Assembly (NCBI GenBank): GCA_039029535.1
Contig: JBCCFW010000003.1
Location: 10,073 to 74,072 of the forward strand
Direction: 5' to 3'
DNA from: Acidobacteriota bacterium
GTDB lineage: Bacteria > Acidobacteriota > JBCCFW01
Length of the DNA: 64,000 bases
The position numbers and the translations under genes were made by a program. Positions 44,100-60,396 of this stretch are shown piece by piece (position 1 is the first letter of the stretch; every line of letters starts with the position of its first letter). The notes beneath the pieces were generated by a model that saw only the letters and a list, made by a program, of their open reading frames with translations, did not search any database and was not told the origin of the DNA.

Positions 44100-45683
44100 G
44101 TGAAGGTCCTCGTCACCGACCGTCTCGGAGAGCCGGGACTCGAGCAGCTCCGCAACGCCTCCGACCTCCAGCTCGAGATCGCCACCGGCCTCCCGGAAGA
44201 CGAGCTCTGCAAGACCATCGCCGACGCTGACGCCCTGATCATCCGCAGCGGCACGACGGTCACCCGCCGCCTGCTCGAGGCCGCCGGTCAGCTCAAGGTC
44301 ATCGGTCGGGCCGGCATCGGCGTGGACAACGTCGACGTCCCCGCCGCCACCGAGCGGGGCGTGGTCGTCATGAACACCCCCGACGCCAACGCGACGACCA
44401 CCGCCGAGCTCGCGATCGCCCACCTCTTCTCCCTCTGCCGCCGTCTCCCCCAGGCCGATGCCTCGGTGCGCGCCGGCAAGTGGGAGCGCTCCGCCTTCGT
44501 CGGCGCCGAGCTCACCGGCAAGACCCTCGGCATCGTCGGCTTCGGCACGATCGGCCGCATCGTCGCCCGCCGCGCCCGCGGCCTGCGGATGATCGTCCTC
44601 GCCAGCGATCCCGTGGTGACCGAGGACGTCGTCCGTCAGGAAGGCGCCGAGCCGCTCCCCCTCGACGAGCTGCTGAAGCGCTGCGACATCCTCACCCTCC
44701 ACTGCCCGCTCATCGAGTCGACCCGCGGTCTCATCGGCGCCGACCAGATCGCCTCGATGAAGAAGGGCGCCCGCATCGTGAACTGCGCCCGCGGCGGCCT
44801 CATCGACGAAGCGGCGCTGCTCGCCGCGCTCGACAGCGGTCAGCTCGCCGGCGCTGCCCTCGACGTCTACGAGAACGAGCCTCCCGAGGGCAGCCCCCTC
44901 CTGTCGCGCGACGACATCGTCTTCACGCCCCACGTCGGCGCCTCCACGAAGGAAGCGCAGGCCGCCGTGGCCGAGGCCATCGCCTCGCAGGTCATCGACT
45001 TCCTCCAGCAGGGCGAGATCCGCCACGCGGTGAACCTCCCCTCGATGCCCGCCGAGCTCGCCGCCAAGCTCGAGCCCTGGCTCGGCCTCGCCGGCTCCCT
45101 CGGACGCCTCCTCTCTCAGATCGCGCCCGGTCCGCTCGAGGCCATCGAGCTGGCCACCCATGGCACCGCCGCCGAGCTCGACCTCCGCACGCTCACCTCC
45201 GAGACCCTCGCCGGCCTGCTGCAGTCGCACTTCGACACGCCGGTGAACCGCGTGAACTCGACCCACCTCGCCAAGGAGCGCGGCCTCTCGGTCACCCAGG
45301 TCCGCAGCGACGACGCCAGCGACCACGTCGGGCTCATGCGGGTCACCGGACGCACGGCCGACGGCGCGACGACGACGCTCTCCGGTGCGCTCCTCGGCGG
45401 ACGTCACCCCCGCCTGGTCGAGGTCGACGGCTACCGACTGGAAGCCACGCCGGAAGGACATCTCCTCATGACCCGGCACCAGGACAAGCCCGGCGTGATC
45501 GGCGCGCTGGGCAGCCTGCTCGGCGAGTCGGGCATCAACATCTCCCGGATGTCGCTGGGCGTGCGCGACGAAGGTGGCGACGCCCTCGCGTTGCTCTCGA
45601 TCTCCGACGCGATGTCGGCGGAGACCCTCGATCGGGTCCGCGGCATCGAGGCCATCGAGCAGGCCTGGTCGCTGAAGCCGTGA
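44100..45683 (+). CDS. serA: D-3-phosphoglycerate dehydrogenase (long form with ACT domain)
   Basis: GTG 44100 follows CAGGAGGGA. GIVGFGTIGRIVA NAD motif, NCARGGLIDE and HVGAST, with C-terminal ASB/ACT regions. Confidence 0.9.
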   Translation: MKVLVTDRLGEPGLEQLRNASDLQLEIATGLPEDELCKTIADADALIIRSGTTVTRRLLEAAGQLKVIGRAGIGVDNVDVPAATERGVVVMNTPDANATTTAELAIAHLFSLCRRLPQADASVRAGKWERSAFVGAELTGKTLGIVGFGTIGRIVARRARGLRMIVLASDPVVTEDVVRQEGAEPLPLDELLKRCDILTLHCPLIESTRGLIGADQIASMKKGARIVNCARGGLIDEAALLAALDSGQLAGAALDVYENEPPEGSPLLSRDDIVFTPHVGASTKEAQAAVAEAIASQVIDFLQQGEIRHAVNLPSMPAELAAKLEPWLGLAGSLGRLLSQIAPGPLEAIELATHGTAAELDLRTLTSETLAGLLQSHFDTPVNRVNSTHLAKERGLSVTQVRSDDASDHVGLMRVTGRTADGATTTLSGALLGGRHPRLVEVDGYRLEATPEGHLLMTRHQDKPGVIGALGSLLGESGINISRMSLGVRDEGGDALALLSISDAMSAETLDRVRGIEAIEQAWSLKP

Positions 45684-46384
45684 AGGGCTTGCTCGACGGC
45701 GAGCCACTCGACGTCGTCGTCTTCGACTGGGACAGCACGCTGGCCAGCATCGAGGGCATCGACGAGCTCGGTCGCCACCGTGGCTGCGAGGAGGAGATCG
45801 CCGCCCTCACCCGCGAGGCCATGAGTGGCGGCACGCCACTGGAAGACGTGTACCTGAAGCGCCTGGAGCGCCTCGCCGTCACGCCCGACGATCCCGAGTG
45901 GCTCCAGGACCGCTACGCCGAGTCGTTGGTCGAGGGCGTCGGCGAGACCCTCGACACCCTGCGGAAGCTCGGCAAGGAGCTCCACGTCGTGAGCGGTGGG
46001 CTGCTCGATGCCCTCGCCCCCGTCGCGCTGGAGCTCGGCTTCGCGGCGAGCAACGTCCACGCGGTCGAGCTCGCCTGGAACGACGACGACAGCCTCGCCG
46101 GCCTGGTCGATCCCACCCTGGCCAGCACCGGCGGCAAGACCACGACCTGTGAACGCCTGCTCGCCGGTCGACGCGGCGCCATGGTCGGCGACGGTCTCAC
46201 CGACCTCGAGGCCGCGCCCCCCTGCGTGCTGGCGGTCGGCTTCGGTGGCGTCGTCACCCGCGAGGCCGTGAAGGACCGCGCCGGCGCCTGGGCCGACGGA
46301 CCCTCGCTCACCACCGTTCTCCCCCACCTGCTCACCGCGGCCGAAGCGGACCGCTACCAGAAGACTCACGGAGCCTCCTCATGA
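45680..46384 (+). CDS. serB: HAD-family phosphatase, phosphoserine phosphatase-like
   Basis: GTG 45680 overlaps the serA stop (GTGA). Has DxDxT (VVFDWDSTL) and GDGLTDLEA motifs. The role is inferred from its position between serA and an aminotransferase. Confidence 0.6.
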   Translation: MKGLLDGEPLDVVVFDWDSTLASIEGIDELGRHRGCEEEIAALTREAMSGGTPLEDVYLKRLERLAVTPDDPEWLQDRYAESLVEGVGETLDTLRKLGKELHVVSGGLLDALAPVALELGFAASNVHAVELAWNDDDSLAGLVDPTLASTGGKTTTCERLLAGRRGAMVGDGLTDLEAAPPCVLAVGFGGVVTREAVKDRAGAWADGPSLTTVLPHLLTAAEADRYQKTHGASS

Positions 46385-47442
46385 GCCGTTCGAAGCTGTG
46401 GATCCCCGGTCCGACCGAGTGCGCCCCCGAAATCCTGGAAGAGATGGCGCGCCCGCCCATCGGGCACCGCGGTGCCGAGATCCAGGAGCTGGTCGGCGCG
46501 ATCCTCCCCGGCCTGCGCACGCTCCTCGACGCCGAGGAGGTCGGCTTCATGACCGCGTCGGCGACGACCGTCATGGAGGCGGGCCTGCGCAACCTCGTCG
46601 GTCGCAAGGCGCTGGTCCTCGCCTGCGGCTCCTTCGGCAAGCGCTGGAAGAGCATCGCCGACGCTTGCGGCATCGAGGCCGACCTCGTGAGCGTCGACCT
46701 GGGCGAGGCCATCAAGCCGGCTCACGTCGAGGAGCACCTCACCGACGAGCACGACGCCGTCTGCCTGACCTGGAGCGAGACCTCCACCGGCGTCCTGAAC
46801 CCCGTCGCCGACATCTCGGCGGCGGTGCGCGCGAAGTCGTCGGACGCCTGCGTGCTGGTCGACGGCGTGTCCGCCCTCGCCGCCGCTCCGGGCGGTCTCC
46901 GGAGCCTCGACGCCGACCTCCTCCTCGCCGGCGTGCAGAAGGCCCTCGCGCTGCCCCCGGGCCTGGCCGTCCACGCCCTCTCGGAGCGGGCCCTCGCCCG
47001 GGCCGAGACCATCCCGCACCGCGGTTTCGTGACCGACTTCCTCAAGCTTCGCGACTCGCTCGCGAAGAACCAGACCCCCGCGACGCCCTCCGTCTCCCAC
47101 CTGTTCGCCCTCCGCGTGCAGCTCGAGCGGATGGCGGCCGAGGGCCCCGAGGGTCGGGTCGCGCGGCACGCGGAAATGGCGGCCCGGGTCCACGGCTGGG
47201 CGGCCGACCGGGGCTTGAGCATCCTCGCCGAGGAGGGCCATCGCTCCCCCGCCGTGACCAGCCTCTCGCGGGACGGGCTCGACCCCAAGGCGGTCATCTC
47301 CGGTGTCGAGGAAAGGCTCGGAGTCCGGCTCGGATCGGGCTACGGCGACCGCAAGCCGACCGACTTCCGCATCGGTCACATGGGCGAGCACGACCTCGCC
47401 GAGCTCGAATCCCTCCTGGAGACCATCGATTCGGTGAGTTGA
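46381..47442 (+). CDS. class V aminotransferase (serine-pyruvate/phosphoserine aminotransferase-like)
   Basis: The ATG overlaps the upstream stop. WIPGPTECAPEILEEM and the PLP-Lys context AGVQKALALPPGLA. Confidence 0.8.
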   Translation: MSRSKLWIPGPTECAPEILEEMARPPIGHRGAEIQELVGAILPGLRTLLDAEEVGFMTASATTVMEAGLRNLVGRKALVLACGSFGKRWKSIADACGIEADLVSVDLGEAIKPAHVEEHLTDEHDAVCLTWSETSTGVLNPVADISAAVRAKSSDACVLVDGVSALAAAPGGLRSLDADLLLAGVQKALALPPGLAVHALSERALARAETIPHRGFVTDFLKLRDSLAKNQTPATPSVSHLFALRVQLERMAAEGPEGRVARHAEMAARVHGWAADRGLSILAEEGHRSPAVTSLSRDGLDPKAVISGVEERLGVRLGSGYGDRKPTDFRIGHMGEHDLAELESLLETIDSVS

Positions 47443-47505: not shown

Positions 47506-48288
47506 ATGAGCGAGTACCTACAAGTCCTGTTGGCCTTTCCGACGGTGGTCTTCACCGTCCTCCTGGGCATCGCCCTTTGCTACTGGCTGATGGTCATCCT
47601 GGGGGCGATGGACATCGACTCGTTCGATCCGTTCCATCACCTGGATGGCGCGGTCGACGGGGCGCTCAACGCGGCCGACGGCGCAGCGGAAGCTGCTGGC
47701 AAGGCGGCCGGCGAGGTCGTCGGGCACGCCGTGGAGGGTGCCGCCGAGGCCGCCGGCAAGGCAGCGGGAGAAGCCGCTGGTGAGGCGGCGGGCAAGGCCG
47801 CCGGCGAAGCCTCGAGCGGAGGCGCACTCGGGCTGATGACGACGCTGGGTCTCAAGGGCATCCCCTGCTCGGTGACCGGCACGGTCGTGGTGATGCTGGC
47901 CTGGGCCGCCTGTGCGATGGCCATGCAGGCCCTGACCGGCCGCCTGCCCGGCGGGTGGGTCTTCACCGCTCTCGCAACGGCCATCTCGCTGGCAGCCCTG
48001 ATGCTCGGCGTCCTGGGTGCCGCCGTGTTGCTGCAGCCTCTCCGTCCGGTGTTCCAGACGAAGGGCGCGCGCTCGGTGTCGGCCTTCGTCGGCAAGACCT
48101 GCACGGTGACGACGGGCGAGGTGACCGAGACCTTCGGTCAGGCGGAGCTCTTCGACGATGAGGAAGCCCTCCTCGTCCAGGTGCGGTCCGACCCGAGCAA
48201 CGAGCTCAAGAAGGGGTCCACGGCACTCATCTACGACCACGACCCCAAGCGTGAGGTCTTCCTGGTGGTGCCCCATGAGGAGGACTGA
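47506..48288 (+). CDS. YqiJ/NfeD-like membrane protein (DUF1449-like) with an Ala/Gly/Glu-rich repeat
   Basis: N-terminal TM, then an (AAEAAGKAAGE)n low-complexity repeat at about 47680-47810, further TMs, and a C-terminal OB-like GKTCTVTTGEVTETFGQAEL. Sits upstream of the SPFH genes, as in yqiJK. Confidence 0.6.
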   Translation: MSEYLQVLLAFPTVVFTVLLGIALCYWLMVILGAMDIDSFDPFHHLDGAVDGALNAADGAAEAAGKAAGEVVGHAVEGAAEAAGKAAGEAAGEAAGKAAGEASSGGALGLMTTLGLKGIPCSVTGTVVVMLAWAACAMAMQALTGRLPGGWVFTALATAISLAALMLGVLGAAVLLQPLRPVFQTKGARSVSAFVGKTCTVTTGEVTETFGQAELFDDEEALLVQVRSDPSNELKKGSTALIYDHDPKREVFLVVPHEED

Positions 48289-48524: not shown

Positions 48525-48647
48525 GACGGCGTAGGGCTCTAGAACGAGAAGGCGAGACATCCGCTTGATGCCAGGAGGGAGGCTCCGAGTGACTCATGAC
48601 CAGCAAGCATCGGCTTTGGCCGAACCAACCACGACTAGGAGGCCAGC

Positions 48648-49226
48648 ATGAACGACCTGCTCTTCCTAGCCATCGCCATCGTCACCCTCCTCATCACGTG
48701 GGCGGGCTTGGCGCTCATCATCGCCAAGTGTCATCGCAGGGTCAGCCAAGGCCAGGCACTGATCATCAACCGCATGAGAACGACCGCCATCCACTTTCGT
48801 GGCGCCGTGGTGTTACCAGTCCTGCACCAAGCCGAGACCATGAACATCTCGGCCCACTCCATCGTGGTCGAGCGTCGCGGTGACGACGGAGTCCCTTGCC
48901 GGGACGAAGTCAAGGCCGACCTGCGGGCGACCTTCGCGCTTCGCGTGAACACGACACGCGATGACATCCTGACCGTCGCCCGTGTACTCGGAACTGAACG
49001 CGCCTCCAGCACCGAGGCGCTCGAGCAGCTATTCTCCCCGCGTTTCTCGGAAGCCCTGGAGACGGCAGCTCGTCACGTCGACTTCGACTCGCTCGCTCGA
49101 AATCGCGACGAGCTCCGCAACCACGTGCAGAGCGAGCTCTCCGACGAGCTCGAAGGATGGGTGATCGACAGCCTGACCATCGACCGTGTCGAGAGGTCCG
49201 GAGTCGGCCCGCGCAGTCCGCCATGA
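48648..49226 (+). CDS. SPFH/Band 7 domain protein, short (flotillin N-terminal paralog lacking the coiled coil)
   Basis: AGGAGG lies 6 nt upstream. Collinear with residues 1-185 of the following flotillin (VSQGQALIINRM / VDQGQALINNKM; ERRGDDGVPCRD / DRRGNDGLICQD). Confidence 0.75.
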   Translation: MNDLLFLAIAIVTLLITWAGLALIIAKCHRRVSQGQALIINRMRTTAIHFRGAVVLPVLHQAETMNISAHSIVVERRGDDGVPCRDEVKADLRATFALRVNTTRDDILTVARVLGTERASSTEALEQLFSPRFSEALETAARHVDFDSLARNRDELRNHVQSELSDELEGWVIDSLTIDRVERSGVGPRSPP

Positions 49227-49354
49227 CCGACGGGTGAGAGCGACGAGAGCAAGAAGAGAAACCCAAGAGAACAACGGCCAGGAGGGAGGCTTCCTGGTGA
49301 CTCACCACGAGGAAGCACCGGCGCGAGCCGGACAGTTCGAATCAGGAGGCAAGC

Positions 49355-51385
49355 GTGGAAAACCTACTCCCCGTCATCGGCGTCATCGTCACCGGCTTCA
49401 TCTTGCTGATGGGCGTGGCGGTCATCATCACCAAGTTCTACCGCAAGGTCGATCAGGGCCAGGCCCTCATCAATAACAAGATGAACACGGTCAGCGTCGA
49501 CTTCCGCGGCGGCGTGGTCATCCCGATCATCCACCGGGCCGAGATCATGGAGATCTCGGTCAAGACGATCGAAATCGACCGACGCGGCAACGACGGCCTG
49601 ATCTGTCAGGACAACATCCGCGCCGACATCAAGGTCACCTTCTTCGTCCGCGTGAACAAGACCCGCGAGGACGTCCTCAAGGTCGCCCAGCTCATCGGCT
49701 GCCACCGCGCCTCCGACCAGCAGACCCTGGAAGAGCTGTTCTCCGCGAAGTTCTCGGAAGCCCTCAAGACCGTCGGCAAGAAGCTCGACTTCGTCGACCT
49801 CTACACCCGCCGCGACGACTTCCGTGATCAGATCATCCAGGTCATCGGCACGGACCTGAACGGCTACGTCCTCGATGACTGCGCGATCGACTATCTCGAG
49901 CAGACGCCGGTGGCCTCTCTCGACGAGAAGAACATCCTCGACGCCCAGGGCATCAAGAAGATCACCGAGCTGACCGTCCGCGAGAAGATCGAGACGAACA
50001 GCTTCGAGAACGACGAGCGCAAGCGCATCCAGCAGCAGAACGTCGAGGCCGACGAAGCCATCTTCGAGCTCGAGCGTCAGCGCGCCGAGGCCGAGGCCAA
50101 GAAGTTCCGTGAGATCGAGACGGTCCAGGCCCGGGAGACCGCCGAGACCCTCAAGGTCCAGGCCGAGGAGAAGCTCCGGCACGAGACCGCCAACATCAAG
50201 ACCCAGCAGGAGCTCGCGGTCCAGGAGGAAAACAAGCAACGTGAGATCCAGGTCGCCGGCAAGAACCGCGAGCGCGTGGTGCTGGTGGAGACCGAGCGTG
50301 TCGAGAAGGACCGGGCGTTGGAAGCGGTGAGCCGCGAGCGCGAGGTCGAGCTCTCCCGAATCGAGAAGGAGAAGGCCCTCGAGATCGAGCGCAAGGAGAT
50401 CCAGGACGTCATCCGCGAGCGTGTCTCGGTCGAGCGCACGGTCGCCGAGGAAGAGGAGCGCATCAAGGAGGTGCGCGTGGTCGAGGAAGCCAAGCGCACG
50501 AAGACCTCCCTCGTCATCGCCGCCGAAGCCGAGGCGGAAGAGAAGCTCGTCCGCGACATCAAGGCGGCCGAGGCTGCCGAGAAGGCCGCCGCGCACCGCG
50601 CCAAGGAGCAGGTCGTCCTCGCCGACGCCAACCTCGAGGCGTCCGAGAAGGACGCGAGCGCAAAGATCCGTCTCGCCGAAGGCGTCCAGGCCGAGACCGC
50701 GGCCGAGGGCCTCGCCCACATCCGCGTGAAGGAGGCCGACGCCTCCGCCACGCAGGCCCTGGGCACGGCCGAGGCCAACGTGGTCCGCGAGAAGGGCAAC
50801 GCCGAAGCCGACGCGCTGGCGCGTCAGCTCGACGCCGAGGCGACGGGCCTGGGTCAGAAGATGCAGGCCGAGGCCGCGGGTCTCACCGAGAAGGCCAAGG
50901 CCATGGCCGCTCTCGACGAGGCCAGCCGCGACCACGAGGAGTACCGCATCCGGCTCGAGAAGGACAAGGCAGTCGAGATCGCCGGCATCGAGGCCAACCG
51001 CGAGATCGCCGAGGCTCAAGCCCGTGTCCTGGCCGAGGCCCTCAAGGAGGCCAACATCGACATCGTCGGCGGCGAAAGCATGTTCGTCGACAGGCTGGTC
51101 GGTGCCATGGGTCAGGGCAAGGCCATCGACGGCTTCGTCAACAAGAGCGCCACGGCTCAGGCGGCGGTCGGTCCCTACCTCGAAGGTGAGCGCAGCTTCG
51201 CCGGCGACGTGAAGGACGTGCTGAGCAACCCACGCCTGGGCTCGGCCGACCTTTCCAACCTGTCGGTGGCGGCCGTCCTCGGTCAGCTCATCATGGGCGC
51301 CAAGGGGGAGAGAAAGGGCAAGCTCGAGCAGCTCCGCGCCGCCGCGGACGAGCTCGGCATCTCCGACCTCAAGCTCGGCGACTGA
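49355..51385 (+). CDS. flotillin-like protein (YqiK/FloT type: SPFH domain plus long E/A/K/R coiled coil)
   Basis: GTG start after AGGAGG. N-terminal TM, an SPFH domain, and about 350 aa of EA-rich heptad-like sequence. Confidence 0.85.
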   Translation: MENLLPVIGVIVTGFILLMGVAVIITKFYRKVDQGQALINNKMNTVSVDFRGGVVIPIIHRAEIMEISVKTIEIDRRGNDGLICQDNIRADIKVTFFVRVNKTREDVLKVAQLIGCHRASDQQTLEELFSAKFSEALKTVGKKLDFVDLYTRRDDFRDQIIQVIGTDLNGYVLDDCAIDYLEQTPVASLDEKNILDAQGIKKITELTVREKIETNSFENDERKRIQQQNVEADEAIFELERQRAEAEAKKFREIETVQARETAETLKVQAEEKLRHETANIKTQQELAVQEENKQREIQVAGKNRERVVLVETERVEKDRALEAVSREREVELSRIEKEKALEIERKEIQDVIRERVSVERTVAEEEERIKEVRVVEEAKRTKTSLVIAAEAEAEEKLVRDIKAAEAAEKAAAHRAKEQVVLADANLEASEKDASAKIRLAEGVQAETAAEGLAHIRVKEADASATQALGTAEANVVREKGNAEADALARQLDAEATGLGQKMQAEAAGLTEKAKAMAALDEASRDHEEYRIRLEKDKAVEIAGIEANREIAEAQARVLAEALKEANIDIVGGESMFVDRLVGAMGQGKAIDGFVNKSATAQAAVGPYLEGERSFAGDVKDVLSNPRLGSADLSNLSVAAVLGQLIMGAKGERKGKLEQLRAAADELGISDLKLGD

Positions 51386-51393
51386 GTCCGTAG

Positions 51394-54300
51394 ATGAGTA
51401 CTGATGTGAGCACCGGAGTCGAGGCCCCCAGCGTCGACTCCGGGAGCTACGAGCTCATCCGGCAACGGCTGGAGAAGCAGGGACAGGACCTCCGCGGTCG
51501 CACGACGAAGCTGAACGAGCGTCGGCTCCAGGTCTTCGGCGGGACCGAGCTGGCGATTCTCGGCAACGAGCGCATCCGCACCGAGAACACCTGCGTCCCT
51601 CGTGACATCGTCGGCATCGGCGACCTCATGGTCTTCGGCTTCGACGTGTTCGTGGGCCTGCGCTCCACCACCAAGCTCGACGACGTCTTCACCGCTCACC
51701 GCTTCGTGAGCAGCGGTGAGGACGACGGCGGCCTCCAGCTCGAGAAGGTCGATGCGGACTTCCTCCGCGACCCCCGGCTCGAGAAGGACTTCGAAGAGCT
51801 CTACCGCTACTACCGGAATGCCCGGCTCGAGCAGCTCCGGCTGGTCGAGGGCAAGCTCCTCGCGATCTTCCGCACGGGCAACCAGGCGACCGACCTCAAG
51901 GTCTTCCGCTGGCGCATCGAGCGGGACGGCCGTCTCCGCTACGAGGACGCTCGGGGCGAGCGCGACAACGTCCGTCCGCCCTCGCACGACTTCGAGTGGA
52001 CGGAGACCACCCGCGAGCAGCACGTCCGCGGACGTCACCCGCACGTGTCGATCGAGGACGCGGTCTTCGTCGAGTGCGTGGGCGGCGACCTCACCATCAA
52101 GGTCGAGGACAACACCGAGGACGGCCAGGGCATCTACCGCGAGCCAGTCGATGACGACGACCAGGCCCTGCAGGATGCCGACATCCTGTACGCCCGTCGC
52201 GGCACGCTCATCCTCCTGAAGATCCTCCCCTACAACGAGGAGGTCTGGCGCTACTTCGTCTTCGACACGCGCAGCGAGACCGTCCGTCGGATCGACGCCA
52301 TCGGCCTGGCCTGCGTGACACTTCCGGAGGACCACGGGATCATCTTCCCCGGCGGCTACTTCCTCCGGGGCGGTGAGAGCAAGAGCTTCGAAGTCGACAC
52401 CGCGGGCCTGCGGCTCTCGCGTGTCCTGCGCTCGCCCAACGGCGAGGACGTCCTCCACGTCTTCTTCGAGCCCGACCGCGGCCGCTACGTGCTGCTGTCG
52501 TACAACCTCATCCGCAAGGAAGTCGCCAACCCCATCCTCTGCCACGGGTACAGCAACTTCCCCGATGGCCGGATGGCGGTGTTCCGCGCCACCTCTCAGG
52601 AACCGACGCGGGTCCATCCACTCCAGGTCTGGCAGACCGCCTACTGCAGCGACGAGCATCAAGCCCGTCGTCCGAGCACCGGCTCGGCCCTCGAGCGCAT
52701 CGGCAACGCCGACCTCGTGCGGGGCATCTCCGACGTCTACGGCACCTGCCGGCTCATCGAGAACCAGGAGCCGACCCAGGCCACCTACGAGGACCTCATC
52801 GGCTCGGTGGGTCGCACCCTCGACGCCTACCACTGGCTCGGTGACGAGGAGTCCGGCGACCTCCAGTCGGTGCTGGAGTCCATCCGCGACACGGCCGAGC
52901 TGGTCATCGACGAGTTCGAGAAGGTCCAGGAGCTCCGCACCCGCGCTCGACGCGAGGTCGCCAAGGCGCGCGACGATCTCTCCACCCTCGTCTCCTCCCT
53001 GCGTCCCGACTTCTGGGAGAGCGTCGATCCCTTCGTGGAGGCGCTCGACGCCCTCCGCCTCCAGCGCGGCCACCTGATCTCGCTCAAGGAGCTCCGGCAG
53101 GTCGACCACGCCGCCCTCGACGAGCTCGAAGCCGAGGTCGTCTCGCAGTCCGAGGCGCTCACCGAGAAGACGGTCGAGTTCCTCCTCCAAGACGACGCGC
53201 TCGCTCCCTACCACCGACGCATCGACACCCTGTCGGAGCAGATCGGTCAGTTGAAGGCGGCCACCGAGGCCACGCCGCTCAAGGAGGAGACCGAGGCCAT
53301 CGGTCGTGGGCTCGACCTGCTGGCGGAGATCGTCGCCGGGCTGGAGGTCGACGACCCCACCCTGCGCACCCGCATCCTCCAGGCCATCTCCGAGGTCGTG
53401 TCCCGGCTCAACGCCACGCGGGCCGAGCTCGAGGCTGCTCGCCTGGGCCTCGCCAAGAAGGAAGGCTCGGCGGAGTTCGGCGCGCAGTTCGCGCTGTTCT
53501 CGCAGTCGGTGGTGTCGTCGCTCTCCCGCTGCGACACGCCTGAAGCCTGCGACGAGCAGCTCACCCGCCTGCTCCTCCAGCTCGAAGAGCTCGAAGGACG
53601 CTTCGCCGAGTTCGACGAGTTCCTCGACGAGCTGAGCCTCAAGCGCGAGGAGGTTCAGGATGCCCTGGCTTCGCGCAAGGACACCCTGCTCCAGGACCGT
53701 CAGCGACGGGCCAGTCGCTTGCTCAAGGCCGCCGACCGCGTGCTGGCCGGCATCGCCCGCCGCGCCCAGTCGCTGACCGAGCTCGACGAGCTCAACGCCT
53801 ACTTCGCCTCCGACCCCATGATCGCCAAGCTGCGCGATCAGGCCACCAAGCTCCGCGAGCTCGGTGACTCGGTCAAGGCCGACGAGATCGAGGGCCGGCT
53901 CAGCGCGGCCCGCGACGAAGCCCAGCGCAGCCTGCGCGATCGCACCGACCTCCATGAGGACGGCGGCGCGGTGATCCGATTCGGCCAGCACCGCTTCAGC
54001 GTGAACCGTCAGACCCTCGACCTGGCCCTGGTCCCCCGCGGCGACGGGATGGCCTACCACCTCACCGGCACCGACTTCCACGAGACGCTCGTTGACGAGG
54101 CCTTCGAGGCCACGCGCCCCTACTGGGACCAGACCCTGGTCTCGGAGACCGACGAGGTCGCCCGCGCCGAGCACCTCGCCGCCGACTTGCTCGCCGCAGC
54201 AGAAGAGGGTCGAGGCACGAGCCTGCACGCCCTGCAAGAGGCGCGCGCCAGCGAGGGAGGTCTCCAGGGCCTCGTCCGCGAGGCGGCCTCCGAGCGACAC

Positions 54301-57084
54301 GAGGAAGGCTACGAGCGGGGCGTGCACGATCACGACGCCGCGCTGGTGCTCGAGAAGCTTCTCCATCTCATCGCCACTGCCGGCTTGCTCCAGTACTCGC
54401 CCCGCGTGCGGGCTCGGGCGCTGCTGGTGGAGACCCACGGGCTCACCGACGATCGGCGTCGACGCTTCGAGTTGGCCGCGCAGAGCCTCACCCGGCTGCG
54501 TGCGAGTCACGGGACCAGCCAGGCTCTCGAAGAGCTGCGTGGCGGTCTCGTCGCGACCATCGAGGAGACCCTCAGGGAGTGGGACTTCGAGCTGTCGTCC
54601 GAAGAGCTCGAGGTCGCTGGACGCTACCTGCTCGAAGAGCTCTCACGTCACCCGCGGCGGATCACGGCCAGCGCCGATGCGGTCGCCTTGCTCGAAGCCT
54701 TCGCGCACGGTGACGGCGGCGAGCGGCAGCGCAAGCTCGCTGAAGAGCTCCGCGCCTTCGCCGACGACCCGAGTCAGGCCTTCCGCCTGGCGCGGGCCTG
54801 GCTCGATCGCTTCGCCGCCACCGACGAGCAGCACGCCGCCCGACGCGCCTTCGCCGAGGAAGCCGCCTTCCTCCTTCTCGTCGGCTCCGAGCGTCCCCGC
54901 GACGTCTCGAGCGCGCCGGTGCACGCGGTCACCGAGGGCATGCTCAGTCAGCACGGTCGCATCCAGGACCGTCGACTGGAGATCCAGCTCGACGAGTTCC
55001 TCTTGCGCACCCGCGCACATCGCACCGAGCGCGTGCCGGGCTACCGTGCCTATCAGGCCGCCCGTCACGAGCTGCTCGAGAAGCGGCGGGCTCAGCTCCG
55101 TCTCGACGAGCTCATCCCGAAGACCATGAGCGGCTTCGTCCGCAACCGACTCATCGACGAGGTCTACCTCCCGATGGTCGGCGCGAACTTCGCCAAGCAG
55201 CTCGGCGCGGCCGGCGAAGGACGACGCACCGACCAGATGGGCCTGCTGCTGCTCATCTCCCCGCCCGGTTACGGCAAGACCATGCTCATGGAGTACGTGG
55301 CCGCGACGCTCGGCCTCATCTTCGTGAAGGTCAACGGTCCGGCCCTGGGCCATCACGTGGTCTCGCTCGACCCGGGCTCCGCCCCCGACGCGACCTCACG
55401 CCAGGAGCTGGAGAAGCTCAACCTCGCCCTCGAGATGGGCAACAACGTCCTGCTCTACCTCGACGACATCCAGCACGTGTCGGCGGAGTTCCTCCAGAAG
55501 TTCATCTCCCTCTGCGATGCCCAGCGCAAGATCGAAGGCGTGTGGAACGGTCGCACCCGCACTCACGACCTCCGCGGCAAGAAGTTCTCGGTGGTCATGG
55601 CGGGCAACCCGTACACGGAGTCCGGCGAGAAGTTCCAGGTGCCGGACATGCTCGCCAACCGCGCCGACGTCTACAACCTCGGCGACGTGCTGTCGGGTCG
55701 GGACGACATTTTCGCGTTGAGCTTCCTCGAGAACGCGATGACCTCCAACGCCGCGCTGCGTCCGCTCGCGCGCAACGGCGGTCGCGACCTCGGTGCCCTG
55801 GTGCGACGTGCGCAAGGAGAGGAAGTCCCCGAGAGCGATCTCACCCAGGACTACTCGGCCGTGGAGCTGGCCGACATCGAGGCGGTGCTGCAGCGTCTGC
55901 TGAAGGTGCGAGAGGTCGTGCTGGCGGTCAACGCCGAGTACATCCGCTCGGCCTCGCAGGACGACGCCTTCCGCACCGAGCCCCGCTTCCAGCTCCAGGG
56001 CAGCTACCGCAACATGAACAAGATGGCCGAGCGCGTGCTGCCGATCATGAACGACGGCGAGCTCCAGGCCCTCATCGACGACCACTACCGTCAGGAGTCG
56101 CAGACCCTCACCTCCGGTGCCGAGCAGAACTTGCTCAAGCTTTCCGAGATCCGCGGGACCATGACCGAGGACGAGGAGGCGCGCTGGCGCGAGGTCAAGC
56201 GAAGCTTCCAGCGGCTCCAGGTCGGCCAGGCCGACGACGACGATCCGGTGAGCAAGGTCACCGCCCAGCTCGGCCTGCTCTCCGAACGCGTGAGCGAGAT
56301 CGCCGAGAGCTTGCAGGCCCCGCGCACGCCGACCACCAACCCCGACCTGCTCGCGACCCTCGAGCGACTCGACACCGCTCTCACCGGGCTCGGCGAGAGC
56401 GCTGCGGGGGACGAGCGACCGGCCACGCCGGCGAGCCTCGACGTGTCGGGCATCACCGAGGCTCTCGGTCCGATCCAGTCGGCCATCGAGCGCTTGGCGA
56501 ACGCCGGTTCGAGCACCGAGCGTCCGCCCCTGGCCGAGGAGCTCGCACCGCTGACCGACCGACTGGCCGCCGCGCTCGAAGCCGGCTCGGCCGCGCCACC
56601 ACCCGCGCCGACCCTCGATCTCGATCCGCTCGTCACGGAACTCCGTCAACTCGCCGAGGGTCTCCCCGCGCTCGTGTCGAGCGCGGCACCGTCGACCAGC
56701 AGCGCTCCTCCGACGCCGGTCGCCGGCGCCGCCGGCAGCGGCCCGGGAGACCTTCAGCCGCTCCTCCATCGTCTCGACAAGTCCCTGCAGTCGCTGTCTC
56801 GGATGCAGCAGGGGGCGGAGCGAGGCCGGAGGCTGTCCTCGGCAGTCCACGAGCTGCTCGGTCAGCACGTGACGGAAGTCGAAGGGGATCTCCAACCGCT
56901 CCTCCACGACCTGGCTCAGCGGCTCAAGAAGGGCACCGCGGCGAAGAACCGTCAACTGCTGGAAGCCGTCGACCGCGCCTTGCTCGGCTTCGACCGCGTG
57001 AAGGATCTCACCGACGCCCTCCGCAAGGGCGACGGAAAGACCTTCCAACGGGCCCGTAAGCCCCCGGAGGAGAAGAAGGCCTGA
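51394..57084 (+). CDS. giant AAA+ ATPase (1,896 aa), DUF3686 'DNA repair ATPase'-type architecture
   Basis: Starts 8 nt after the flotillin stop. Walker A ISPPGYGKT (K1295, nt 55276-55278), Walker B LLYLDDIQH (D1357-D1358), and a sensor-like VVMAGNPYTESG...LANRADVY. About 450 aa of N-terminal beta-rich domain and about 750 aa of helical/coiled-coil sequence precede the ATPase. The tail is Ala/Pro/Leu-rich. Confidence 0.8.
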   Translation: MSTDVSTGVEAPSVDSGSYELIRQRLEKQGQDLRGRTTKLNERRLQVFGGTELAILGNERIRTENTCVPRDIVGIGDLMVFGFDVFVGLRSTTKLDDVFTAHRFVSSGEDDGGLQLEKVDADFLRDPRLEKDFEELYRYYRNARLEQLRLVEGKLLAIFRTGNQATDLKVFRWRIERDGRLRYEDARGERDNVRPPSHDFEWTETTREQHVRGRHPHVSIEDAVFVECVGGDLTIKVEDNTEDGQGIYREPVDDDDQALQDADILYARRGTLILLKILPYNEEVWRYFVFDTRSETVRRIDAIGLACVTLPEDHGIIFPGGYFLRGGESKSFEVDTAGLRLSRVLRSPNGEDVLHVFFEPDRGRYVLLSYNLIRKEVANPILCHGYSNFPDGRMAVFRATSQEPTRVHPLQVWQTAYCSDEHQARRPSTGSALERIGNADLVRGISDVYGTCRLIENQEPTQATYEDLIGSVGRTLDAYHWLGDEESGDLQSVLESIRDTAELVIDEFEKVQELRTRARREVAKARDDLSTLVSSLRPDFWESVDPFVEALDALRLQRGHLISLKELRQVDHAALDELEAEVVSQSEALTEKTVEFLLQDDALAPYHRRIDTLSEQIGQLKAATEATPLKEETEAIGRGLDLLAEIVAGLEVDDPTLRTRILQAISEVVSRLNATRAELEAARLGLAKKEGSAEFGAQFALFSQSVVSSLSRCDTPEACDEQLTRLLLQLEELEGRFAEFDEFLDELSLKREEVQDALASRKDTLLQDRQRRASRLLKAADRVLAGIARRAQSLTELDELNAYFASDPMIAKLRDQATKLRELGDSVKADEIEGRLSAARDEAQRSLRDRTDLHEDGGAVIRFGQHRFSVNRQTLDLALVPRGDGMAYHLTGTDFHETLVDEAFEATRPYWDQTLVSETDEVARAEHLAADLLAAAEEGRGTSLHALQEARASEGGLQGLVREAASERHEEGYERGVHDHDAALVLEKLLHLIATAGLLQYSPRVRARALLVETHGLTDDRRRRFELAAQSLTRLRASHGTSQALEELRGGLVATIEETLREWDFELSSEELEVAGRYLLEELSRHPRRITASADAVALLEAFAHGDGGERQRKLAEELRAFADDPSQAFRLARAWLDRFAATDEQHAARRAFAEEAAFLLLVGSERPRDVSSAPVHAVTEGMLSQHGRIQDRRLEIQLDEFLLRTRAHRTERVPGYRAYQAARHELLEKRRAQLRLDELIPKTMSGFVRNRLIDEVYLPMVGANFAKQLGAAGEGRRTDQMGLLLLISPPGYGKTMLMEYVAATLGLIFVKVNGPALGHHVVSLDPGSAPDATSRQELEKLNLALEMGNNVLLYLDDIQHVSAEFLQKFISLCDAQRKIEGVWNGRTRTHDLRGKKFSVVMAGNPYTESGEKFQVPDMLANRADVYNLGDVLSGRDDIFALSFLENAMTSNAALRPLARNGGRDLGALVRRAQGEEVPESDLTQDYSAVELADIEAVLQRLLKVREVVLAVNAEYIRSASQDDAFRTEPRFQLQGSYRNMNKMAERVLPIMNDGELQALIDDHYRQESQTLTSGAEQNLLKLSEIRGTMTEDEEARWREVKRSFQRLQVGQADDDDPVSKVTAQLGLLSERVSEIAESLQAPRTPTTNPDLLATLERLDTALTGLGESAAGDERPATPASLDVSGITEALGPIQSAIERLANAGSSTERPPLAEELAPLTDRLAAALEAGSAAPPPAPTLDLDPLVTELRQLAEGLPALVSSAAPSTSSAPPTPVAGAAGSGPGDLQPLLHRLDKSLQSLSRMQQGAERGRRLSSAVHELLGQHVTEVEGDLQPLLHDLAQRLKKGTAAKNRQLLEAVDRALLGFDRVKDLTDALRKGDGKTFQRARKPPEEKKA

Positions 57085-57167: not shown

Positions 57168-58523
57168 ATGGTCATGGCGCGCAAGCTCGGCGAGATCCTC
57201 ACCTCCTCACACGGCGTGTCGGAGGAGATGGTCAACAAGGCTCTCGAGACTCAGGCGATGTTCGGTGGTCGCCTGGGCACCAACCTGATCGACCACGGCG
57301 TCGTCGATGCCGAGCTCCTCGGCGCGGCTCTCGCCGAGCAACACGCCGTGGACGAAGTCATCGCGGAGATGCTCGACGGCGCTTCGGTGCGTGCCCTGCG
57401 GCTGGTGCCGAACACGATCGCTGCCAAGCACGGCATCGTGCCGCTCAACGTGAAGGACAAGATCCTCGTCGCGGCCATGCTCGACCCGACCGACCTCGTC
57501 GGCATCGACGAGCTCGCCTTCGCGACGAATCTCCACATCAAGGCGCTGGCCTGCCCGGAGATTCGACTCCGCACCTACCTCGAGCGCTACTACAAGATCC
57601 CGCGGCCCAACCGTCTCGTGCAGGTGGCCCACGATGCCGCTCAGGGCGTCGGCGGTGGTGGCGGTCTCGGGCTCGACGACCTCGAGGCGCCGCCCGAGGG
57701 TGCGCTCGGAAACGAAGACGGCTTCACGCCGGGCGCCGATCCCCTGGCGACTCAGACCATCGCTCAGCTCCAGTCGCCGATGGCCTCGCTGAACAGCGGC
57801 CTCACCGGGCTCGGCATGATGCCCGACCTGGAGATCACCGAGCTCCTCGGAGTCGACCCCGGTCAGGCGGTGACGCCGGGCGTCATCCGCAAGGCAGAGG
57901 AAGAAGCACCGGCTGAGAAGCAGGAGAAGATCGAAGCGGCAGTCTCCGAGCTCAAGCGACGACGCAGCGCACGGGACGAAGCGGTCGAAGCAGCGCGCGT
58001 CGCGGCCGTCGAGAGCGTGGAAGACGTCGTGCGCGTGCTGGCCGACTCGCTCACGCGCGAGGACATCGGCGAGTCGCTCATTCGCTTCTTCTCGAAGAGC
58101 TTCCCCCGCGTGGCTGCCTTCGTGGTCCAGAAGGAGCAGGCCCTCGGCTGGCACGCCATCATGCCGGACACGCCCTTCGAGCAATCGAGGAAGGACATCC
58201 GCAGCGCGTCGGTCTCGCTCGAGGAACCGTCGATCATCCAGGGCGTCATCCAGACCGGTCAGTACTACCTCGGCGAGCTCCCCGGGCGAGCGAGTGACGA
58301 GGCTTACGCCGCTGCGCTCGGCGGACCGCGTCCCACCGACCTGCTCATCCTTCCGGTGCAGCTCAACACGCAGGTGGTGTTCGCCCTCCACGCCGATTCG
58401 ATGGACGAGTCTCTCGGCGAGTTCGACATGCGCAGCCTGCGCGCCGCCTGTCATGCGGCCGAGCTCGCCATGGAGGTCTTGCTGCTCCGCTCGCGGATCC
58501 GGCAGCTCGCCGACCTCGACTGA
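57168..58523 (+). CDS. T2SSE_N (GspE/MshE N-terminal-like) domain protein with an unknown C-terminal domain
   Basis: MARKLGEILTSSHGVSEEMVNKALETQ...GRLGTNLIDHGVVD...IVPLNVKDKILVAAMLDPTDL pattern. Confidence 0.55.
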   Translation: MVMARKLGEILTSSHGVSEEMVNKALETQAMFGGRLGTNLIDHGVVDAELLGAALAEQHAVDEVIAEMLDGASVRALRLVPNTIAAKHGIVPLNVKDKILVAAMLDPTDLVGIDELAFATNLHIKALACPEIRLRTYLERYYKIPRPNRLVQVAHDAAQGVGGGGGLGLDDLEAPPEGALGNEDGFTPGADPLATQTIAQLQSPMASLNSGLTGLGMMPDLEITELLGVDPGQAVTPGVIRKAEEEAPAEKQEKIEAAVSELKRRRSARDEAVEAARVAAVESVEDVVRVLADSLTREDIGESLIRFFSKSFPRVAAFVVQKEQALGWHAIMPDTPFEQSRKDIRSASVSLEEPSIIQGVIQTGQYYLGELPGRASDEAYAAALGGPRPTDLLILPVQLNTQVVFALHADSMDESLGEFDMRSLRAACHAAELAMEVLLLRSRIRQLADLD

Positions 58524-58531
58524 GCGTCGCC

Positions 58532-59368
58532 ATGTCTGAAGAGAGGGAGCCGGCGAAAGCGCTCCAGATGGTGGAGCTCCACTTCGCGGGAGCGGCCCCC
58601 GATCTCGACGCGGTCCCGGAGCGCCTTCGTGAGCTTCTTCGGGTCGAGCCGGAAGCGATCGAGGTCGACGAGACCGACCGCTCGCTGCTGCTCTACCACC
58701 GCAGCCATCCCGTGGACTCGCAGGGCCGGATGCCGGCGCAGACCGCCATCCTCTCGGCGGAAGGTGCGTCGAACCCCGAGCGCTACGCCGCCGAGCTCCA
58801 GCAGTCCTGGGCCTGCCCGGACGCCGAGACTCGCTTGAAGGCGTCGACGCACACCTGCCTGCTCACGGAGATGCTGAGCGCGGTCCTCCCCACGGCCGTG
58901 CGGCTCGAGCTCTTCCACGCCGCACTGCAGTCGCTGGTCGAGATCACCTCGCCGATCGCGCTGGTGTTCAAGCACTCGCAGCAGGTCCTCGATCCTGCCG
59001 TGTACCTGGCCGCCTGCGCCGAGCCGCCGGCACGTCGTCCCGGGGTGGTGAACGTCCGCTTCTTCCGGGTGGAGAACGCCGACGGCACGCTCATCATGGA
59101 CACTCGTGGCCTCGAGGAGATCGGACTGCACGACTTGCAGTGTCGCTTCCGCGGTCTAGAGCCCGACGCGGTCAGCCGCGTGCTGTTCAGCACGGCCATC
59201 TACATCGTCGAGAACGGCCCCGTGATCGAGTCGGGTCATTCGATCCAGGGGCTCACCGAAGACTCACGCTGGCGCTGCCAGTTCGAAGAGGCCTTGCTCG
59301 ACCCGCCACGCACGCTGCTCGACCTCCACCCAGGGGACGAGCACGCCGCCGCATCCCAGAGCACGTGA
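58532..59368 (+). CDS. hypothetical protein, DUF4261-like
   Basis: LIMDTRGLEEIGLHDLQCRF resembles the DUF4261 core. The assignment comes from memory of that motif only. Confidence 0.4.
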   Translation: MSEEREPAKALQMVELHFAGAAPDLDAVPERLRELLRVEPEAIEVDETDRSLLLYHRSHPVDSQGRMPAQTAILSAEGASNPERYAAELQQSWACPDAETRLKASTHTCLLTEMLSAVLPTAVRLELFHAALQSLVEITSPIALVFKHSQQVLDPAVYLAACAEPPARRPGVVNVRFFRVENADGTLIMDTRGLEEIGLHDLQCRFRGLEPDAVSRVLFSTAIYIVENGPVIESGHSIQGLTEDSRWRCQFEEALLDPPRTLLDLHPGDEHAAASQST

Positions 59369-60396
59369 GGCCTGCGGCGATCCTCGTTCTTCTCGGTCCC
59401 AAGGGAGCAGGCAAGAGCTTCCTGGGTCGGCTGATGGAGAGCGAGCTCAGCGTGAGCTTCATCGACGTCGAGTCGATCTTCCTGAGCCTCGACGATCCGC
59501 GGGACGTGACGAACGGATACGAGCGCGTCGCCGACGAGGTGGCCGCCCACTCGGCCGGCGGCTCCGCCGTCTCGCTCGAGCTGACCGGTGCTTCGGAGCA
59601 CGCTGACGAGCTCATCGAACGCCTCCGTGGTCTCGGCTCCGTGCGTCTCGTCCGCGTCGACGCGACGCTCTCGACCTGCCTCCGTCGCGTGCGCGACCGT
59701 GATGCCAGCGTTCACCTGCCGGCTGATGAGGCACTGGTCGAGACGGTGCACGCGGCCTGCGCGGACTCGACGCGGGACCACGACCTGACCATCGACAACG
59801 ACACGGACGATGCCGGCCGGCCACTGACCCGCCTGCGTCGGCTGGTCGAACACCTGGCGATCGGCGAGGGGCGCACGCTCTCGTCGTATCGCCACGAGGA
59901 CGCACCGGCCCTGGTCGAAGCGCTCGAGGACGGGACGGTCGCTGCGACCATCCCGGTCATCCCTCATCCCTACGGTCTCGAGCAGGCGCGGAGCTTCCTT
60001 CGCTACCGGATCGCGACGTCGGGCCGACACGACGTGGAGGTCGCCTTCGCCCTCCGTGACGCCGACGACCGCCTGATCGGCTCGGTCGGCCTGGAGGGCT
60101 TCGAGACGAGCGGTCCGAACGCCGCCGAGCTGGGCTACTGGATCGGGCCGCGCCACTGGGGCCAGGGGCTCACGGGAGCCGCCGTGCCGGTGGTCCTGCG
60201 TCATGCCTTCGAGACCTTGGCCCTCGAGCGAGTGAATGCCCGTACGCTGGTCGGCAACCAGGCCTCGCGACGGATCCTCGACCGCAACGGCTTCCAGCAC
60301 GTCGAGACGAGACTGAAGGACACGCCGACGCGAGACGGCCCTCGCGACACGAGTTACCACGTCCTCGAGCAATCGGGCTGGCTGGCTCTGCGCTAG
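59365..60396 (+). CDS. fusion protein: N-terminal P-loop kinase-like domain plus C-terminal GNAT (RimJ/RimL-like) acetyltransferase
   Basis: GTG 59365 overlaps the upstream stop (GTGA). Walker A LLGPKGAGKSF. C-terminal GYWIGPRHWGQGLTGAAV ... NQASRRILDRNGFQH. Confidence 0.7.
   Translation: MRPAAILVLLGPKGAGKSFLGRLMESELSVSFIDVESIFLSLDDPRDVTNGYERVADEVAAHSAGGSAVSLELTGASEHADELIERLRGLGSVRLVRVDATLSTCLRRVRDRDASVHLPADEALVETVHAACADSTRDHDLTIDNDTDDAGRPLTRLRRLVEHLAIGEGRTLSSYRHEDAPALVEALEDGTVAATIPVIPHPYGLEQARSFLRYRIATSGRHDVEVAFALRDADDRLIGSVGLEGFETSGPNAAELGYWIGPRHWGQGLTGAAVPVVLRHAFETLALERVNARTLVGNQASRRILDRNGFQHVETRLKDTPTRDGPRDTSYHVLEQSGWLALR

Follow-up and report, generated by a model that had tools for sequence, protein, structure and literature searches.

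What is the role of a giant AAA+ protein that is encoded directly behind a flotillin-like gene and whose relatives are named 'DNA repair ATPase' in the databases? The question is raised by a stretch of 64,000 nucleotides (64 kb; hereafter the window) from the genome of an Acidobacteriota bacterium (contig JBCCFW010000003.1), in which the protein had earlier been described from the DNA letters and translations only (hereafter the sequence-only reading). We report that the AAA+ gene occupies the third place in a conserved operon (NfeD/YqiJ-like, flotillin-like, AAA+) and is translationally coupled, that its product is a member of a widespread and catalogued family of uncharacterised function and that the database label is almost certainly wrong. 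The linkage to flotillin and NfeD-like genes is near-universal and the accessory genes are membrane-only, and because of this we propose, with a probability of about 0.5, that the protein acts as an ATP-driven remodeller of the flotillin/NfeD scaffold in a membrane stress response akin to the phage-shock-protein (Psp) response. The architecture of the protein, the invariance of its ATPase motifs, the near-universal linkage and the lack of DNA-repair features are shown here. The genes of the module in the window are the following (aa, amino acids; position 1 is the first nucleotide of the window).

47506..48288, + strand: NfeD/YqiJ/YuaF-like membrane protein of 260 aa, three transmembrane segments by hydropathy followed by a C-terminal soluble beta-rich domain
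48648..49226, + strand: truncated SPFH-only paralogue of 192 aa, a transmembrane segment and Band_7 without the coiled coil (Pfam Band_7, E=1.4e-9)
49355..51385, + strand: flotillin-like protein of 676 aa, N-terminal membrane anchor, SPFH domain and long Glu/Ala-rich coiled coil
51394..57084, + strand: giant DUF3686-AAA+ protein of 1,896 aa, ATG start

The NfeD-like gene is the first of the conserved module, and the stop codon of the flotillin gene and the start codon of the AAA+ gene are 8 nucleotides apart. The gene caller of the public collection places the AAA+ start at a GTG four codons downstream, giving 1,892 aa, and no transmembrane segment is predicted in the protein, i.e. it is soluble. 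For the window NfeD-like protein neither a Pfam nor a PDB sequence match was obtained; an orthologue gives a weak Pfam YqiJ_N match (E=0.016), and this partner is called a '3TM protein prototyped by YqiJ/YuaF' by Ravi et al. (PMC11237479). Similarly, the window flotillin-like protein has no significant Pfam match and no PDB sequence match, and it matches the NCBIfam FloT model weakly (E=3.6e-4). It is 45% identical to an 'SPFH domain-containing protein' of plasmid pQBR103, which itself matches Band_7 (E=9e-11), and a Streptomyces orthologue carries the RefSeq name 'flotillin family protein'.

The decisive evidence comes from the genomic context. We compared 80 related loci, drawn from a collection with one genome per species. 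A flotillin-like gene of approximately 650 aa is present immediately upstream and on the same strand in 76 of them (47-62% identity), and a NfeD/YqiJ-like gene of 200-340 aa with three transmembrane segments lies ahead of the flotillin gene, in the same position and on the same strand, in 72. The other four loci show no listed flotillin match, and at least some of them end at a contig edge. The sequence-only reading had pointed to flotillin, and flotillin is indeed the direct upstream partner. Represented among the loci are Myxococcota, Acidobacteriota, Actinomycetota, a large number of Gammaproteobacteria, Vulcanimicrobiota and one record with the title Flavobacterium; the three-gene module is also that of the nearest relative (L083). 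DUF2170 (CesT/Tir-like) and PspA/IM30 genes are added in approximately 30 gammaproteobacterial loci, many of which also have a rhomboid protease, a PLD-like gene and a gene for a TFIIB-type zinc ribbon, and a PLDc_2 gene is located downstream in approximately 18 loci. All these accessory genes are membrane-related and count for a membrane-scaffold role. As to the size of the family, at least 5,976 of the 8,000 candidates that were scored have a match at E ≤ 1e-5, and the number of confirmed matches in the one-genome-per-species collection is 496.

The domains of the AAA+ protein, as predicted by Pfam and by two overlapping AlphaFold2 models (aa 1-1150 and aa 1101-1896, each with an alignment of 100 sequences), are listed below.

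51487..52833, + strand: DUF3686 (aa 32-480; Pfam), a helix at 16-48 and then propeller strands at 54-414
52834..55140, + strand: helical middle (aa 481-1249; AlphaFold2), helices of up to 58 residues
53194-53442, + strand: DUF7902 (aa 601-683; Pfam, E=5e-25)
53974-54087, + strand: small conserved beta domain (aa 861-898; AlphaFold2 model)
55141..56103, + strand: AAA+ module, alpha/beta core and helical lid (aa ~1250-1570; Pfam, AlphaFold2, Foldseek)
56092..57081, + strand: C-terminal tail (aa 1567-1896), seven predicted amphipathic helices with Ala/Pro/Ser-rich linkers

DUF3686 (PF12458) is matched with 657 bits (cut-off 25, E=1e-197), residues 32-480 corresponding to model positions 1-448 of 448, and DUF7902 (PF25472) with 88 bits (cut-off 26), whereas the Pfam models AAA, AAA_22 and AAA_5, all within residues 1281-1410, barely exceed their cut-offs (28.8 versus 21.2 bits for AAA). 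These matches bear out an N-terminal DUF3686 and one AAA module as proposed earlier, and the open reading frame and every sequence motif named at that time are present. The earlier claim would also have failed had the protein fallen into a characterised family with a known role; no hidden Markov model of Pfam or NCBIfam assigns it to such a family, the NCBIfam scan gave nothing over cut-off and there is no SMC/RecN match. DUF3686 comprises 748 clusters at 50% identity, and among those listed it is N-terminal in almost all of 150, the apparently complete proteins being approximately 1,600-2,000 aa long; DUF3686 is effectively a single-architecture family.

What then of the databases' own answer, that the protein is a DNA repair ATPase? 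It is carried by the Pfam title of DUF3686 and by the RefSeq product names of copies from Streptomyces, Pseudomonas, Hymenobacter and P. aeruginosa, all named 'DNA repair ATPase', and the lowest Foldseek E-values for the AAA+ core are those of RuvB (1.4e-5), with the Walker B context LDDIQH resembling IDEIH of RuvB. Against this, the NCBIfam RuvB models score far below their cut-offs (NF000868, 16.2 versus 282 bits; TIGR00635, 15.4 versus 299), and in contrast to RuvB the protein has neither a RuvA/RuvC context nor a winged-helix DNA-binding domain. No DNA-binding domain was detected, and no DNA-repair, recombination or nuclease gene is present among the conserved neighbours in the 80 loci; each conserved neighbour is a membrane protein. 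Our literature search found no publication on DUF3686/PF12458 by family name and none linking DUF3686 to DNA repair. The doubt that the sequence-only reading cast on the label is thus vindicated, and we consider a role in DNA repair hardly credible.

The AAA+ family and its operons have been catalogued by comparative genomics (Ravi et al. 2024, mSystems; PMC11237479), with the same domain description and operon partners. These authors report that a PLD-superfamily hydrolase is sometimes present and that abbreviated operons without PspA are widespread (PMC11237479). What they describe is found in the window, i.e. a propeller, a coiled coil and an AAA+ module in one chain and the gene order NfeD-like, flotillin, AAA+; since PspA and DUF2170 are both absent from the 64-kb window as judged by tblastn, the window operon is of their abbreviated class without PspA. 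Their grouping was reached independently and agrees with the linkage that we find. Ravi et al. give no structural model, motif analysis or description of the tail (PMC11237479), and the order seen here is propeller, helices, AAA+. New in the present analysis are the quantified flotillin linkage, the structural models (the propeller, the pre-sensor-1 hairpin, and a fold closest to RuvB and NorQ), the finding that Walker B is Asp-Asp, the tail motif shared by the family and the link to BacE of P. aeruginosa (see below).

The lineage-specific PspA genes suggest another answer, in which the AAA+ protein would work as Vps4 does, recycling the polymer of PspA/IM30 (a member of the ESCRT-III superfamily) after membrane repair, with flotillin merely recruiting PspA and the ATPase. 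PspA and DUF2170 share the operon in approximately 30 gammaproteobacterial loci and on pQBR103, and the analogy to Snf7/VPS4 for PspA-associated AAA+ proteins has been drawn by Ravi et al. (PMC11237479). Approximately 50 of the 80 loci, the window included, have no PspA nearby, however, and the PspA linkage is confined to particular lineages whereas that to flotillin is near-universal. Furthermore, the AAA+ protein lacks an MIT domain and the second region of homology of the classical clade, and the structures nearest to it are RuvB and NorQ, not Vps4. In favour of this answer, the amphipathic D-L-x-P-L-L-x-R-L helices of the tail may bear a loose likeness to short helical motifs of ESCRT-III/Vps4 recognition. 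On balance we regard recycling of PspA as unlikely.

It is known that SPFH scaffolds are paired with AAA+ machines, e.g. HflK/C with FtsH and prohibitin with the m-AAA protease, and that the flotillin-like YdjI of B. subtilis links PspA to the membrane; these cases are precedents for the proposed remodeller. The logic shared with HflK/C-FtsH and prohibitin-m-AAA is that of an SPFH scaffold coupled, genetically or physically, to a membrane AAA+ protein, the coupling here being genetic; in contrast to FtsH and m-AAA, the window AAA+ protein has neither a transmembrane segment nor a protease domain and belongs to another AAA+ clade. The operons B. subtilis pspA-ydjGHI and E. coli yqiJK likewise combine flotillin-like and NfeD/YqiJ-like genes, sometimes with PspA and a zinc ribbon, but have no AAA+ gene.

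Experimental data on a related operon come from P. aeruginosa, where bacABCDEF (PA3732-PA3727), the 'biofilm-associated cluster', constitutes a single sigma-54-type operon and BacE (PA14_16190/PA3728) is co-transcribed; when bacA is mutated, BacE increases 8.9-fold, as part of a joint rise with BacB-D and BacF (PMC10948618). PA3731 accumulates upon osmotic shock and in biofilms (PMC2587700). PA3728 is listed among the genes with recurrent mutations and positive selection in isolates from cystic fibrosis (PMC8190622), with mutation counts that are inflated by its length of 5.2 kb. BacE has the same architecture and length class (1,746 aa), the window protein and its P. paraeruginosa counterpart are 49% identical over aa 15-1692, and the bac operon has the same order of the NfeD-like BacC and the flotillin BacD/PaFlo3 relative to the AAA+ gene. 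The P. paraeruginosa locus (L074) matches the published BacA-F in gene order and sizes, and its AAA+ protein belongs to a 90%-identity cluster of 3,222 sequences, of which the 15 listed members all belong to P. aeruginosa or to its group. Compared to the bac operon, the window has no gene for DUF2170 (BacA) or PspA (BacB) upstream and none for the PLD-like BacF downstream; its AAA+ protein has a longer tail, and the truncated SPFH gene is extra. We found no publication that assigns a function to BacE or DUF3686. The sequence-only reading had called the family one without known experimental support; this stands with respect to function, but the family has been described (PMC11237479) and BacE named (PMC10948618).

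The expression data also raise the possibility of a defence system against phages or other antagonists, which would sense damage to the envelope and trigger a protective or abortive response, the PLD-like protein being the effector in some lineages. Expression of PA3728-PA3732 is raised in every phage-infected sample (PMC12041424), the distribution is patchy and suggests horizontal transfer (PMC13086221), a PLDc_2 gene follows in the approximately 18 loci mentioned above, and there is a weak PADLOC match to IetA (E=5e-5). Induction by phages would, however, be equally expected of a general Psp-type membrane-stress response. In PADLOC-DB 2.0 only IetA was matched, over the region before and at the P-loop, and the four neighbouring proteins matched nothing. 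The family is not matched in 50,697 phage records; among 72,556 plasmid records 13 have a match, most of these being megaplasmids, chromids or records of chromosome size. The module is flanked by syntenic housekeeping genes, namely serA/HAD/aminotransferase for the window as for its nearest relative and recJ and yaeQ for Pseudomonas. A dedicated defence function is therefore in our opinion very unlikely.

One plasmid copy deserves a separate remark. The environmental megaplasmid pQBR103 of P. fluorescens SBW25 (L081) carries at 85-98 kb an uninterrupted same-strand run of genes that includes the module, for PspA, rhomboid, DUF2491, DUF350, DUF1190, a glutathionylspermidine-synthase-like protein, NfeD-like, SPFH and AAA+. 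The module is here fused to a yjfJKLMC-type cluster, which merges two classes of PspA operons that were kept separate by Ravi et al.

Can the protein hydrolyse ATP, and to which AAA+ group does it belong? The relevant elements are:

55258..55281, + strand: Walker A SPPGYGKT (K1295), invariant in 100 sequences
55450..55467, + strand: Walker B LLYLDD (D1357, D1358), both Asp invariant
55528..55569, + strand: pre-sensor-1 beta-hairpin (aa 1379-1392), AlphaFold2 strands between those of Walker B and sensor 1
55600..55668, + strand: sensor 1 and candidate arginine finger AGNPYTESGEKFQVPDMLANRAD (N1405, R1423), invariant residues
55999..56013, + strand: candidate sensor 2 GSYRN (R1539), in the lid helix of the AlphaFold2 model

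K1295, D1357/D1358, N1405, R1423 and R1539 are all invariant in 100 aligned family members, and so the Walker motifs, on whose conservation the sequence-only reading had made its claim depend, are conserved. The single Walker A/B pair that it reported (K1295 and D1357-D1358) is likewise the only one, since no second hhhhD[DE] or GK[ST] motif is present in the whole 1,896-aa chain. The segment AGNPYTESG...LANRADVY corresponds to aa 1403-1427, with the residues N, P, Y, T, G, F, P, D, M, L, N, R and D invariant, and GSYRN lies inside the invariant block RTEPxFxLQGSYRNM. In the AlphaFold2 model of aa 1101-1896 (mean predicted local distance difference test score, pLDDT, of 80) the AAA+ part reaches 85-98 and consists of a canonical core and a lid that carries R1539; the strands of the hairpin are at 279-284 and 287-292 in fragment numbering (add 1100 for protein numbering). 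In the two family alignments (A1 and A2) a few residues are misaligned at the fragment ends. All five motifs are situated on the alpha/beta core and the helical lid as in the AAA+ superfamily, and the invariant motifs together with the confidently modelled fold count in favour of a protein competent as an ATPase, and hence of the proposed remodeller.

Foldseek gave a probability of 1.0 for the AAA+ module against RuvB, NorQ, CbbQ, MCM and Lon. While the lowest E-values are those of RuvB, the highest target-normalised TM-scores (0.55-0.62) are those of the MoxR-type NorQ and CbbQ, followed by MCM, Lon and Skd3. According to the model the module belongs to the pre-sensor-1-hairpin group, within no characterised family. 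PDB searches with the single sequence and with the family profile gave matches at the level of the P-loop plus one designed coiled coil. Two other identities were considered and rejected: the classical-clade AAA proteins (Vps4, p97, NSF) are matched in the PDB, by sequence and by profile, over only ~35 residues at the P-loop, the top structures being from other clades, and for SMC/RecN there is no such Pfam or NCBIfam match, the P-loop lying late in the chain and within an AAA+ fold.

The TM-scores bring up the MoxR family (NorQ, CbbQ, RavA; AAA_3/AAA_5, clade 7), members of which share with the window protein the single AAA+ module, the pre-sensor-1 hairpin, the N-P...N-R region and a GSxR-type sensor 2. 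By analogy, the protein might be a client chaperone or maturation factor of the NorQ type, inserting cofactors into membrane-protein clients or extracting or remodelling these, with the flotillin cage concentrating the clients and being the platform rather than the substrate. That AAA_5 exceeds its Pfam cut-off is in line with this, as is the report that S. aureus FloA-NfeD stabilises unfolded proteins (cited in PMC13086221). The margin of AAA_5 is, however, only ~2 bits (23.9 versus 22) and AAA_3 is not matched; moreover, the helix-2 position in the AlphaFold2 model, as read from the DSSP string, is a conserved loop without a clear beta-hairpin. No VWA/MIDAS partner gene is present among the conserved neighbour clusters of the 80 loci, nor is there an obvious client gene nearby. 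Compared with the MoxR family the window protein is furthermore ~1,600 aa larger and has a DD Walker B, and the helix-2 insert is not evident. We take the N-P-x-x-x-x-G...P-x-x-L-x-N-R motif to resemble the sensor-1/Arg-finger regions of MoxR proteins and count it for a NorQ-type function, which all the same seems improbable to us. The suggestion of a 'MoxR/dynein-type AAA_5' module in the sequence-only reading accordingly holds in part: AAA_5 passes and NorQ/CbbQ have the top TM-scores, but RuvB has the top E-values and the VWA partner is lacking.

How would such a module be connected to a flotillin scaffold? The AlphaFold2 model of aa 1-1150 has a mean pLDDT of 86, mostly >90 in the DUF3686 part, and predicts for aa 54-414 a beta-propeller of approximately 6-7 four-stranded blades, a number read from the DSSP string. 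With Foldseek the N-terminus matches six- and seven-bladed propellers, i.e. CyRPA, PON1 (paraoxonase-1), Ski8, the trilobed protease and the clathrin terminal domain (E values of 6e-5 to 1e-3); the N-terminal ~450 aa, earlier called beta-rich, are beta as predicted and more specifically a propeller. The ~750-aa charged helical middle was also correctly recognised with respect to its long helices (at 420-852 and 902-1148 in the model), but the beta domain between them (861-898) had been missed. This middle region is rich in invariant residues, e.g. HRFSVN and HLTGTDF. With low TM-scores the whole chain matches IFT-A, clathrin heavy chain and dynein, all 'propeller plus helices' proteins, and we interpret this as a resemblance of architecture only.

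The tail is rich in Leu (15%), Ala (13%) and Pro (7.6%), and contains the repeated motif noted earlier:

56746..56775, + strand: repeat copy 1, GDLQPLLHRL (aa 1785-1794)
56884..56913, + strand: repeat copy 2, GDLQPLLHDL (aa 1831-1840)

The composition thus fits the Ala/Pro/Leu-rich tail of the sequence-only reading, in which the two GDLQPLLH(R/D)L copies were put about 40 aa apart; the spacing is 46 aa. As 16-mers the copies score 49 with BLOSUM62, compared to 28.5 ± 3.3 (maximum 39) in 200 shuffles of the tail. Both copies are hence real, but 'two copies' understates the case, since they are part of a family-wide motif in a helical-repeat tail: in the window tail L-x-P-[LIY]-x-x-x-[LI] occurs five times (aa 1691, 1717, 1743, 1787 and 1833), each time at the start of a predicted helix, and the GDLQPLLH pair is the best preserved. 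Over 116 homologues the pattern [LIVMF]-x-P-[LIVMFY]-[LIVMFT]-x-x-[LIVMA] occurs 2.3 times per 330-aa tail compared with 0.12 in shuffled tails and 0.12 per 330 aa elsewhere in the protein, i.e. an enrichment of ~19-fold, and the commonest residues over the collected instances are L-x-P-Y/L/V-L/V-x-x-L-x-x-x-L-x-x-L. The tail is modelled as helices (pLDDT 55-85) and not as disordered. Its final ~110 aa are conserved among close homologues; orthologues from actinomycetes and gammaproteobacteria align only up to aa ~1640-1700, and the long tail is specific to Myxococcota and Acidobacteriota. For positions 1627-1827 of the family profile A2 (aa ~1620-1880) the best PDB match is 8qae, a de novo designed single-chain antiparallel coiled-coil barrel (E=1.7e-6), which we read as shared periodicity and not homology, and which suggests that the tail helices could pack as an antiparallel bundle. 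The tail motif has presumably some likeness to MIM1 of ESCRT-III; the spacing is inexact and the likeness is not used in the main argument.

Taken as a remodeller of the flotillin/NfeD scaffold, the protein would use its single AAA+ module to form a ring on the cytoplasmic side of the inner membrane, and its propeller and long helical arms would dock onto the flotillin/NfeD assembly. ATP hydrolysis would then remodel the scaffold, by assembling, opening or dismantling it or by loading or releasing its contents, within a Psp-like response to membrane stress. In operons that also encode PspA the machine may couple flotillin to the dynamics of PspA, and the helical-repeat tail with its L-x-P-Y/L-L motifs may be a multivalent or autoregulatory binding element.

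Several observations weigh against this proposal. In all members Walker B is Asp-Asp instead of the usual Asp-Glu, and because of this hydrolysis could be slow or switch-like. The pore-loop position, which is aromatic in polypeptide translocases, is occupied by an invariant NGPALGH without any aromatic residue, and this argues against a classical threading unfoldase; together the two features hint at a switch-like or gripping ATPase and not a classical translocase. Deletion of the flotillin partner PaFlo3/BacD gave approximately 20% less biofilm and no other phenotype (PMC13086221), and because the deletion is nearly without phenotype the flotillin-BacE system would seem to be dispensable under laboratory conditions. 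Flotillin/YqiJ operons without an AAA+ gene exist, E. coli yqiJK being an example, and for this reason the AAA+ protein is not required for flotillin function as such. Finally, we infer that BacE is the orthologue of the window AAA+ protein from synteny, gene sizes and the locus of the sister species, and not from the PAO1 sequence.

A bolder version of the proposal is that the protein represents the first dedicated ATP-powered machine for an SPFH/flotillin cage, i.e. a hexamer of 1,900-residue subunits whose six propellers and coiled-coil arms would take hold of the flotillin/NfeD dome, the machine opening or dismantling it on demand. We put this forward tentatively and think it rather doubtful. 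If true, it would be a bacterial counterpart of the Vps4/ESCRT-III or NSF/SNARE logic, and the propeller-then-helices layout would be a bacterial analogue of eukaryotic membrane-coat and transport proteins, an analogy drawn because the weak whole-chain Foldseek matches to IFT-A, clathrin heavy chain and dynein hint at it. The mislabelling is wide, with 'DNA repair ATPase' names set against evidence for membrane-scaffold biology, and the subject touches on the mechanism of bacterial flotillins and the active remodelling of their assemblies, for which the coupled AAA+ protein offers a direct experimental handle. In P. aeruginosa the operon has links with biofilm formation, with virulence and with how the cells respond to phage infection. 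The protein is a good experimental target for bacterial flotillin biology and will come as no surprise to specialists.

The window module has a peculiarity of its own in the truncated SPFH gene. Its product is 45% identical to aa 1-188 of the adjoining flotillin, and it sits between the NfeD-like and flotillin genes together with a duplicated leader of ~110 nucleotides, the two leaders sharing long identical runs. Neither the nearest relative nor any of the 80 related loci has the paralogue, which could be a cap or dominant-negative regulator of flotillin assembly, or else a decaying duplicate. The duplicated leader carries an AGGAGG ribosome-binding site and a CCAGGAGGGAGGC(T)TCC element, and upstream of both SPFH genes (48570-48610 and 49278-49300) there is a potential hairpin, CCAGGA-GGGAGGCT-TCCTGG, perfect in the flotillin copy, as a candidate regulatory RNA element.

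Guided by the bac operon, we looked for a sigma-54 promoter upstream of the module; matches in the window are no commoner than in shuffled sequence, and none is rightly placed. In seven loci from unrelated lineages (L003, L010, L033, L039, L044, L048 and L070) the module is adjoined by an open reading frame of one cluster (c72), whose representative in L003 (509 aa) looks by eye like a sigma-54 enhancer-binding protein with a GAF-like N-terminus, a sigma-54-interaction AAA+ domain and a helix-turn-helix. This would echo the sigma-54-type promoter proposed for the bac operon; near the window module no such gene was found.

Upstream of the module the window has a serine-biosynthesis-like cluster (44019-47442, + strand) with genes for a serA-type phosphoglycerate dehydrogenase that carries an ACT domain, for a HAD hydrolase and for a class-V aminotransferase, and the nearest relative has the same flanking genes in the same order. 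The longest open reading frame for the HAD hydrolase (634 aa) overlaps serA; translation probably begins inside it, which would leave ~225 aa, the length called in L083. The next gene downstream of the module (57168-58523, + strand) encodes a 451-aa protein with an N-terminal MshEN-type cyclic-di-GMP (c-di-GMP)-binding domain (Pfam, E=2e-13; NCBIfam c-di-GMP motif, E=3e-11) and without an ATPase or glycosyltransferase domain, and it is conserved beside the module in no other locus. It is followed by a gene for a DUF4261 protein (58532-59368, + strand) and by an open reading frame (59140-60396) for a P-loop kinase-like protein (weak AAA_33 match) with a GNAT acetyltransferase domain; the two overlap by ~230 nucleotides and the second probably starts later.

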